Below are positions 360 to 1,142 of a DNA stretch of 1,276 nucleotides, piece by piece. A program made the position numbers and the translations under genes. Location of the stretch: NCBI RefSeq assembly GCF_003334255.1, contig NZ_QOWU01000167.1; one strand, given 5' to 3'. The notes below the pieces were generated by a model, which saw nothing but the letters and a program-made list of their open reading frames with translations, searched no databases and was not told where the DNA came from. How positions within the stretch are numbered: the stretch's first letter is position 1; each line of letters starts with the position of its first letter. Origin of the DNA: Escherichia coli (GTDB lineage: Bacteria; Pseudomonadota; Gammaproteobacteria; Enterobacterales; Enterobacteriaceae).

Positions 360-965
360 TTTTAACTCCTCTGGATAAATTAAATCACAAATTTTTGTAT
401 TATAAATAACCGCATAAGCCAAATTATTTGAGATTAATAAAACATCACCAACTTCAATATCAACAAGACTTCTGTAACATGTTTTACTAAATCCAATTAC
501 AAAATGAATGGAGCAATATAACGATTTTTTGTCTAACGCTGGAGCGTTTCCGTATTGGCAGACTGTGACTTTATCTAACCAAAGATTCAATTCCCCTGTC
601 CATATTCTTATTAGTGGTTGAGCAGGGCTCAATACTCCATCAAATACTTTACCTACGCGCAAACGATTATATTTTAGTTCAGGATGCTTTAGATTTAACG
701 GGGAACTGGATAAACTGAGGCATTCCCCTATTAACCTTTCCGTTTCTGGCATTAAAGCCATCCCAGCGAGCTCAGATGAAATTAAGGGAAATATTTCTCC
801 AAGCAATACCCATCCAGACCAGCTGCCACTCTCTTCTGCTATCGGTAGCCATTTAGCACTAAATTCGGGCATTAATAATGCAACATCTTCGCCATTTTCT
901 TTCCAATTTTGAAAAGTGGTTTCAAACGTATGAGTGTTTCGATTTACTTTCCTCAGACCGAACAT
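51..965 (-). CDS. sctQ: Type III secretion sorting-platform / cytoplasmic ring protein, SctQ family (SpaO/Spa33/YscQ-like), complete
   Basis: Complete ORF from the six-frame track: ATG at 965..963, TAG at 53..51. An in-frame TGA lies 9 nt upstream of the ATG, so the N-terminus cannot extend further. The C-terminal ~65 aa (LPVKIEFVLGKK...NIEIRVNGALTGYGELVEVGDAANLLI) has the FliN-like SpoA signature, and an upstream SpoA-like block (SIHFVIGFSKTCYRSLVDIEVGDVLLI) matches the two-SpoA architecture of SctQ. Length (304 aa) and motif layout resemble Salmonella SpaO as I remember it (LPVKLEFVL; FVIGSS...IGDVLLI). Homology is from memory, not a search. Confidence 0.85.
   Translation of the reverse strand: MFGLRKVNRNTHTFETTFQNWKENGEDVALLMPEFSAKWLPIAEESGSWSGWVLLGEIFPLISSELAGMALMPETERLIGECLSLSSSPLNLKHPELKYNRLRVGKVFDGVLSPAQPLIRIWTGELNLWLDKVTVCQYGNAPALDKKSLYCSIHFVIGFSKTCYRSLVDIEVGDVLLISNNLAYAVIYNTKICDLIYPEELKMADHFEYEEDFETDDFDIKKNESEIYDENDDQMINSFEDLPVKIEFVLGKKIMNLYEIDELCAKRIISLLSESEKNIEIRVNGALTGYGELVEVGDAANLLI
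366..372 (-). promoter_or_regulatory. Internal ribosome-binding site (AGAGGAG) for the SctQ-C start
   Basis: Minus-strand sequence aGAGGAGttaaaaATG: consensus-strength SD 6 nt upstream of ATG 359..357, inside the sctQ reading frame. Confidence 0.5.
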
Positions 966-1084
966 TAACTTTCATCCTTCTGATCGTTTTCGAATTTGCT
1001 TTCATTTTCTTGCTCCTCATAAGGCTGATGTCGTTGTCCTTGTCGTTCATCTTGCTCAGTCAATACCCAACGTTGTGCTGTAAC
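965..1084 (-). other. Orphan 39-codon open frame ending in TAA that overlaps the sctQ ATG (TAATG); possible relic of a decayed upstream sctP-like gene
   Basis: Minus frame 1084..968 is open (VTAQRWVLTEQDERQGQRHQPYEEQENESKFENDQKDES) and its stop at 967..965 overlaps the sctQ ATG. It has no ATG or GTG start and is bounded upstream by TGA, TAA and TAG at 1087..1085, 1090..1088 and 1099..1097. No homology established. Confidence 0.2.
975..981 (-). promoter_or_regulatory. Ribosome-binding site of sctQ (AGAAGGA)
   Basis: Minus-strand sequence cAGAAGGAtgaaagttaATG: AAGGA core 9 nt upstream of the sctQ ATG at 965..963. Confidence 0.45.
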
Positions 1085-1142
1085 TCATTATGAAAACTAT
1101 TTAATTCCCTCATCATTGATAAGGTTGGACATCTCTTTCAAC

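Follow-up and report, generated by a model that had tools for sequence, protein, structure and literature searches.

The 1,276-nucleotide stretch of Escherichia coli DNA analyzed here (contig NZ_QOWU01000167.1, assembly GCF_003334255.1; the whole stretch is referred to below as the window) carries on its minus strand most of sctQ (epaO), a gene of the ETT2 type III secretion island. Directly ahead of sctQ lies a 39-codon open frame that has no conventional start and ends in a TAA overlapping the sctQ start codon, and the question raised by this locus is what the startless frame represents. Its comparison with intact ETT2 loci, together with that of the window core with 5,426 complete E. coli genomes, allows us to identify it with very high confidence as the 3′ remnant of the needle-length determinant gene eivJ (sctP), left behind by an 8.7-kb deletion. 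The frame is a deletion scar already known from the ETT2 literature and from its pseudogene label in the annotation of the NCBI Prokaryotic Genome Annotation Pipeline (PGAP), and there is nothing new in it. Beyond correct annotation its significance is slight, as an instance of ordinary gene decay in a decaying pathogenicity island, with two by-products, namely the placement of the deletion junction at single-base resolution and evidence that the true start of sctQ (epaO) is the ATG of the TAATG overlap. Loci and proteins used for comparison are cited below by L and P numbers, and the features of the window are collected in Table 1.

The minus strand of the window reads ...GAT GAA AGT TAA TG TTC GGT..., and the stop codon of the 39-codon frame does overlap the start codon of sctQ, as had been stated in a preliminary description made from the sequence alone, with the extent of the overlap being a single common base and not four. 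The frame is open for exactly 39 codons, with the translation VTAQRWVLTEQDERQGQRHQPYEEQENESKFENDQKDES, and the three in-frame stops reported ahead of it (TGA, TAA, and TAG) are indeed present within 15 nucleotides (nt). The statement that the frame has no start holds for ATG and GTG, but an in-frame TTG is found at 1063..1061, opening a 32-residue open reading frame (ORF); this codon is that of Leu260 of intact EivJ.

The identification of the frame is provided by its intact orthologues. The C terminus of a 291-residue E. coli EivJ protein (P0006) is identical to the translated tail in 39 of 39 residues, and other intact EivJ proteins differ from it at 2–4 positions. A protein search with EivJ of O157:H7 returns many E. 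coli proteins of 291 residues that carry Pfam PF02510. In the contigs encoding P0006 and P0021, independent gene calls place eivJ at 3001..3876 and a 315-residue sctQ at 3876..4823, the coordinates of the two genes in L008, L009, and L010, with an identical TAATG. Intact upstream genes ending in the ...KDES-TAATG junction, the existence of which had been suggested, are thus found. Pfam SPAN matches residues 206–279 of the intact P0006 (E 7.5e-21), whereas its match to the 39-residue tail alone is weak (model positions 55–80 of 84, E 0.019), and an NCBIfam search with the tail alone gave no match; the membership in the SpaN/EivJ family therefore rests on the orthologue P0006. PGAP labels positions 1084..965, which is exactly the 39-codon frame, as a pseudogene of a needle length determinant of the SpaN/EivJ family with a missing N terminus, and this label, as well as the SPAN match of the intact orthologue, bears out the earlier guess that the frame belongs to the SctP family. 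In operons of the inv/spa type sctP is located between sctO (spaM/eivI) and sctQ, as it is in the intact loci L003, L004, and L008–L012; the window keeps the sctQ side of this neighborhood, while the sctO side is deleted. Among the loci and proteins compared, nothing contradicts the identification as eivJ.

The weight of this observation comes from homology, since TAATG alone is within chance for the window: it occurs 8 times in this AT-rich sequence, against 4.3 ± 2.1 expected, and at least 8 occurrences were seen in 14 of 200 shuffles. Both the open frame and the overlap could be regarded as chance features of AT-rich DNA, in keeping with the lack of TAATG enrichment and with a 39-codon open frame being only mildly unusual. 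This explanation is, however, refuted by the complete identity of the tail to the C terminus of intact EivJ and by the preservation of the junction in relatives with SctQ just 28–32% identical, leaving it a negligible probability.

The manner in which the remainder of eivJ was lost is evident from the alignment with strains that possess the full right end of ETT2. In these, the order of the genes is glycoside hydrolase family 15 (GH15), ghoT/ortT-like, eivF, sctC, the gatekeeper, sctV, sctN, sctO-like, SpaN/EivJ, and sctQ, and the segment missing from the window amounts to 8,737 bp compared to O157:H7 strain 86-24 (L003) and to 8,736 bp compared to TUM20902 (L004). On the eivJ side, identity to the intact loci begins at GTTACAGC (window 1084), and on the GH15 side it runs through ...AAATAG TTTTCATAATGAG, likewise ending at window 1084. 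The region from the 5′ part of eivJ through eivF is lost, and the GH15 gene (ygeQ/pkgA) is brought beside epaO, as in the 8.7-kb deletion isoform of ETT2. The proposal that the frame is the 3′ end of an upstream gene disrupted from its upstream side is thereby supported, with the junction placed exactly at the cluster of stops. Fusion of the eivJ tail to the GH15 stop TAG and the trailing TAATGA accounts both for the lack of a start and for the three stops: the TAG is the true stop of the GH15 gene, sharing its frame with the eivJ tail by chance, and the TAA and TGA are intergenic.

As an IS1 end is located only 115 nt upstream of the remnant, where it interrupts the GH15 gene 33 codons ahead of its stop, truncation of eivJ by this element, and not by the deletion, might be considered. 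However, the IS1 elements are not the cause of the truncation, because the remnant and the junction are identical in IS1-free strains (L001, L002, L005, and L007), and what separates the remnant from IS1 is the terminal part of the GH15 gene, normally located 8.7 kb away. Truncation by IS1 is thus refuted, with hardly any probability left to it, in favor of the deletion, the junction of which is the same in every deletion-type locus read (the four just listed, L006, and the window).

Table 1. Features of the 1,276-nt window.
Feature	Position	Strand	Description
IS1 terminal 77 nt (left inverted repeat end, IRL)	1..77	minus	Inserted in the 3′ end of sctQ; identity to IS1-free L001 breaks off abruptly at 76/77
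sctQ (epaO, SpaO/YscQ family)	78..965	minus	Codons 1–296 of 315; ORF 51..965
Strong internal Shine-Dalgarno sequence GAGGAG (371..366)	357..371	minus	6 nt before ATG 359..357, which is sctQ codon 203
TAATG	963..967	minus	eivJ stop TAA 967..965 and sctQ start ATG 965..963; A at 965 common to both
AAGGA, plausible sctQ Shine-Dalgarno sequence	975..979	minus	9 nt before the ATG, inside the eivJ tail; putative function
eivJ (sctP, SpaN/EivJ family) remnant	968..1084	minus	Last 39 codons, residues 253–291 of the 291-residue protein
Deletion junction	1084..1092	minus	Breakpoint between 1085 and 1084 (alignment)
Intergenic bases (12)	1085..1096	minus	Contain TAA 1090..1088 and TGA 1087..1085; identical downstream of the GH15 stop in L003 and L004
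GH15 gene (ygeQ/pkgA) 3′ end	1097..1199	minus	Last 33 codons and own stop TAG 1099..1097 (annotation and alignment)
Second IS1 terminal 77 nt (right inverted repeat end, IRR)	1200..1276	minus	Identity to L001 breaks off abruptly at 1199/1200; same orientation as the first

In the ancestral island, the 291 codons of eivJ were followed by a TAA whose final A was also the first base of the sctQ (epaO) ATG. Everything from 12 nt past the GH15 stop to codon 252 of eivJ was then lost in one deletion of 8.7 kb, bounded by two short, imperfect repeats, and with it went the ghoT/ortT-like gene, eivF, eivG/sctC, eivE, eivA/sctV, eivC/sctN, eivI/sctO, and most of eivJ. Two insertions of IS1 would have taken place later than the deletion, one of them cutting the GH15 gene and the other removing the last 19 codons of sctQ. 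The flanks of the junction show an imperfect microhomology, CAtAATGA-G on the left (GH15) flank and CAcAATGAtG on the eivJ side, which points to repeat-mediated illegitimate recombination as the probable origin of the deletion. Later papers credit the eivJICAEGF deletion to Ren et al. 2004. The window resembles this deletion isoform in the locus, the genes lost, the size, and the short-repeat junction, and is set apart from it by its two IS1 ends, one of them 115 nt ahead of the remnant and the other within the terminal part of sctQ. An isoform of ETT2 that lacks 8.74 kb from its right end has been described (PMC11068852), and the deleted ETT2 fragment has been reported to be situated between two small direct repeats (PMC5422975), in a paper that implies a recurrent deletion mediated by these repeats.

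The overlap itself is not peculiar to E. coli. Each of the 10 E. coli loci that were read has the TAATG junction, and the cross-species comparison, which was built on plasmid-borne relatives, extends it further. In the plasmid system of Providencia alcalifaciens (SctQ 32% identical) the gene of the SpaN/EivJ family ends at the start base of sctQ with TAATG, and in the Salmonella IncFII plasmid system (SctQ 28% identical) it ends at that base with TGATG, whereas spa32 and spa33 of Shigella overlap by 7 nt. All these pairs have the gene order sctN, sctO, sctP, sctQ, sctR, sctS, and sctT found in ETT2, a SctP C terminus in which an acidic tail comes after the motif RW.L..(E/Q)D, and a sctP stop overlapping the sctQ start; the pair invJ(spaN)–spaO of Salmonella SPI-1 is presumably of the same kind. 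Unlike any of them, the window keeps 39 of the 291 sctP codons, and its junction is without an upstream partner. The neighboring genes of ETT2 are packed as well, with overlaps of 11 and 23 nt upstream and of 11 nt downstream.

A stop/start overlap with a Shine-Dalgarno sequence nearby is the usual geometry of termination–reinitiation coupling in packed operons, and the overlap between eivJ and sctQ probably served such translational coupling, the site being ancestral. With its upstream partner eivJ lost, the coupling site is orphaned, and any translation of sctQ would therefore have to start de novo. The remnant, in which approximately the C-terminal third of the SPAN domain survives, is presumably non-functional, and with about a third of the domain neither needle-length control nor substrate switching would be expected of it.

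It could be argued instead that the tail is now a small independent gene, encoding a 32-residue acidic peptide from the TTG at 1063..1061, and that in strains of the deletion type its termination at TAATG still drives the translation of sctQ by coupling. The in-frame TTG does exist, the deletion allele is common, and the ORFs of sctQ, sctR, sctS, and sctT are still open in many such strains. However, the TTG is merely the Leu260 codon of the intact protein, with no convincing Shine-Dalgarno sequence ahead of it, the identity among strains is a matter of recent shared ancestry and not of demonstrated selection, the machinery served by sctQ (sctC, sctV, and sctN) is deleted, and sctQ of the window is itself cut by IS1, all of which makes a small gene highly improbable. 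Published work describes effects of degenerate ETT2 islands on surface properties and virulence. We can speculate that deletion-type ETT2 might keep the tail of eivJ as the ribosome-binding region of sctQ, and that a short acidic leader initiated at TTG 1063 might also be made from it, so that sctQ, sctR, sctS, and sctT, which are still open, would go on being expressed in a role other than secretion, but such a role is quite improbable.

Two caveats apply to the account of a coupled eivJ–sctQ pair truncated by a repeat-mediated deletion. The microhomology is imperfect, with one base strictly common at the junction, so that the recombination mechanism is to be taken as probable at most, and the argument for coupling at the eivJ–sctQ junction is drawn from geometry and conservation. 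The annotation of O157:H7 has the start of sctQ 41 nt upstream of the TAATG, a discrepancy for which a deletion of 1 nt, specific to this lineage, provides the explanation. In O157:H7 (L003 11089..11170, equivalent to window 1005..930 on the minus strand), the missing nucleotide is located 32 nt into sctQ (CACTC[A]TACG); its absence cuts the ORF initiated at TAATG to 30 codons, and the annotated EpaO of 328 residues starts at the upstream ATG in the other frame.

All other loci read, including lineages with ~7% divergence, keep the extra A and a 315-residue ORF from the ATG of TAATG, as do the IS1-free loci, and the SctQ family profile also begins at this ATG, with 12 residues of the O157 protein falling outside the profile. 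The ATG of TAATG is therefore the ancestral start of sctQ, the same codon that had been chosen in the preliminary description. In most strains PGAP describes sctQ as "frameshifted" and places its start 41 nt upstream, at the window equivalent of 1005; this label, like the longer 328-residue annotation of EpaO, appears to be an artefact of the 1-nt deletion in O157:H7. As a member of the SctQ (SpaO/YscQ) family of cytoplasmic ring proteins, the ORF of the window scores 447.7 bits against NF006018 (cut-off 223), with window residues 2–298 aligned to profile positions 3–286 of 303, and 176.9 bits against TIGR02551 (cut-off 100.8). The genes of SpaO, YscQ, and Spa33 also make a short C-terminal product from an internal start. 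The ATG at codon 203, preceded by its own Shine-Dalgarno sequence, is likely to be such a start, predicted to yield a product of 113 residues in the intact gene, and its position presumably corresponds to that of the internal start of Salmonella SpaO.

The two ends of the window match annotated IS1A/IS1B elements, which are found in thousands of plasmids, and the window holds one end of each copy. Positions 77..1 match exactly what we take to be the 77-nt left-end sequence of IS1. In sctQ, the left IS1 replaces the last 19 native codons by the read-through residues GDAANLLI and a stop at 53..51. The ETT2 fragment between the two IS1 copies is 1,122 bp long. IS1A is present at the identical GH15 site in strain HCP17S3_I4, and the GH15-side junction is also found in complete E. 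coli genomes (L006); the sctQ-side junction as one piece, and likewise the exact pair of junctions together, were found in none of the 5,426 complete E. coli genomes.

Many E. coli chromosomes match the window core (77..1198) with 100% identity in their ETT2 locus. The region, the neighbors of which are actS, tRNA-Gly, and ygeQ, is present in 3,288 of the 5,426 genomes, and the deletion allele, seen as a contiguous match across the junction, in about 1,934 of the 5,426. In the matching records, PGAP annotates the GH15 fragment as a "hypothetical protein" ending at window 1097, and sctQ as a gene of the YscQ/HrcQ family. A scan of contigs with the SctQ protein returned a single locus, in an E. 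coli-like contig of a "Flavihumibacter" metagenome-assembled genome (MAG), and no cross-species comparison was gained from it. This contig (L007, CABHOW010000183.1, "uncultured Flavihumibacter sp.") carries an ETT2 locus of the deletion type, with SctQ 100% identical to that of the window, and the occurrence of an E. coli-type locus in this MAG is almost certainly due to contamination or mis-binning.

Some minor features of the locus accompany the deletion. A second TAATG is located at the junction (1086..1090, minus strand), and its ATG (1088..1086) opens a frame of 10 codons only (MSYSTTLGID and a stop); this motif stems from the spacer that normally comes after the GH15 gene, and it appears to be coincidental. 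The possibility that this ATG, combined with a frameshift, marks a small upstream gene was rejected, as the DNA in question is intergenic DNA past the GH15 gene moved in by the deletion. Promoter and terminator scans of the locus gave nothing informative. In the intact loci (L003 2275..2298) an inverted repeat, GCGGTCC-N10-GGACCGC, is found ~15 nt past the GH15 stop, immediately to the right of the left breakpoint, and is removed by the deletion; it is without a T-run and was not called in the terminator scan. If this repeat stops transcription, its removal would place sctQ–sctU in one transcription unit with the GH15 gene.

Copies of eivJ that escaped the deletion are often broken. In O157:H7 (L003 10254..11129) it is represented by pieces of 77 and 189 residues, and many EivJ proteins in the databases (P0040–P0046) are frameshifted past an A-rich tract and finish with the tail ...KTVIIKIVKKNTAMETK, consistent with the 1-bp indels reported at one site of eivJ in E. 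albertii. In TUM20902 (L004 10254..11129), PGAP splits eivJ into two partial annotations, although an uninterrupted frame of 306 codons leads up to the TAATG, and the split looks like an inconsistency of the annotation and not a real break.
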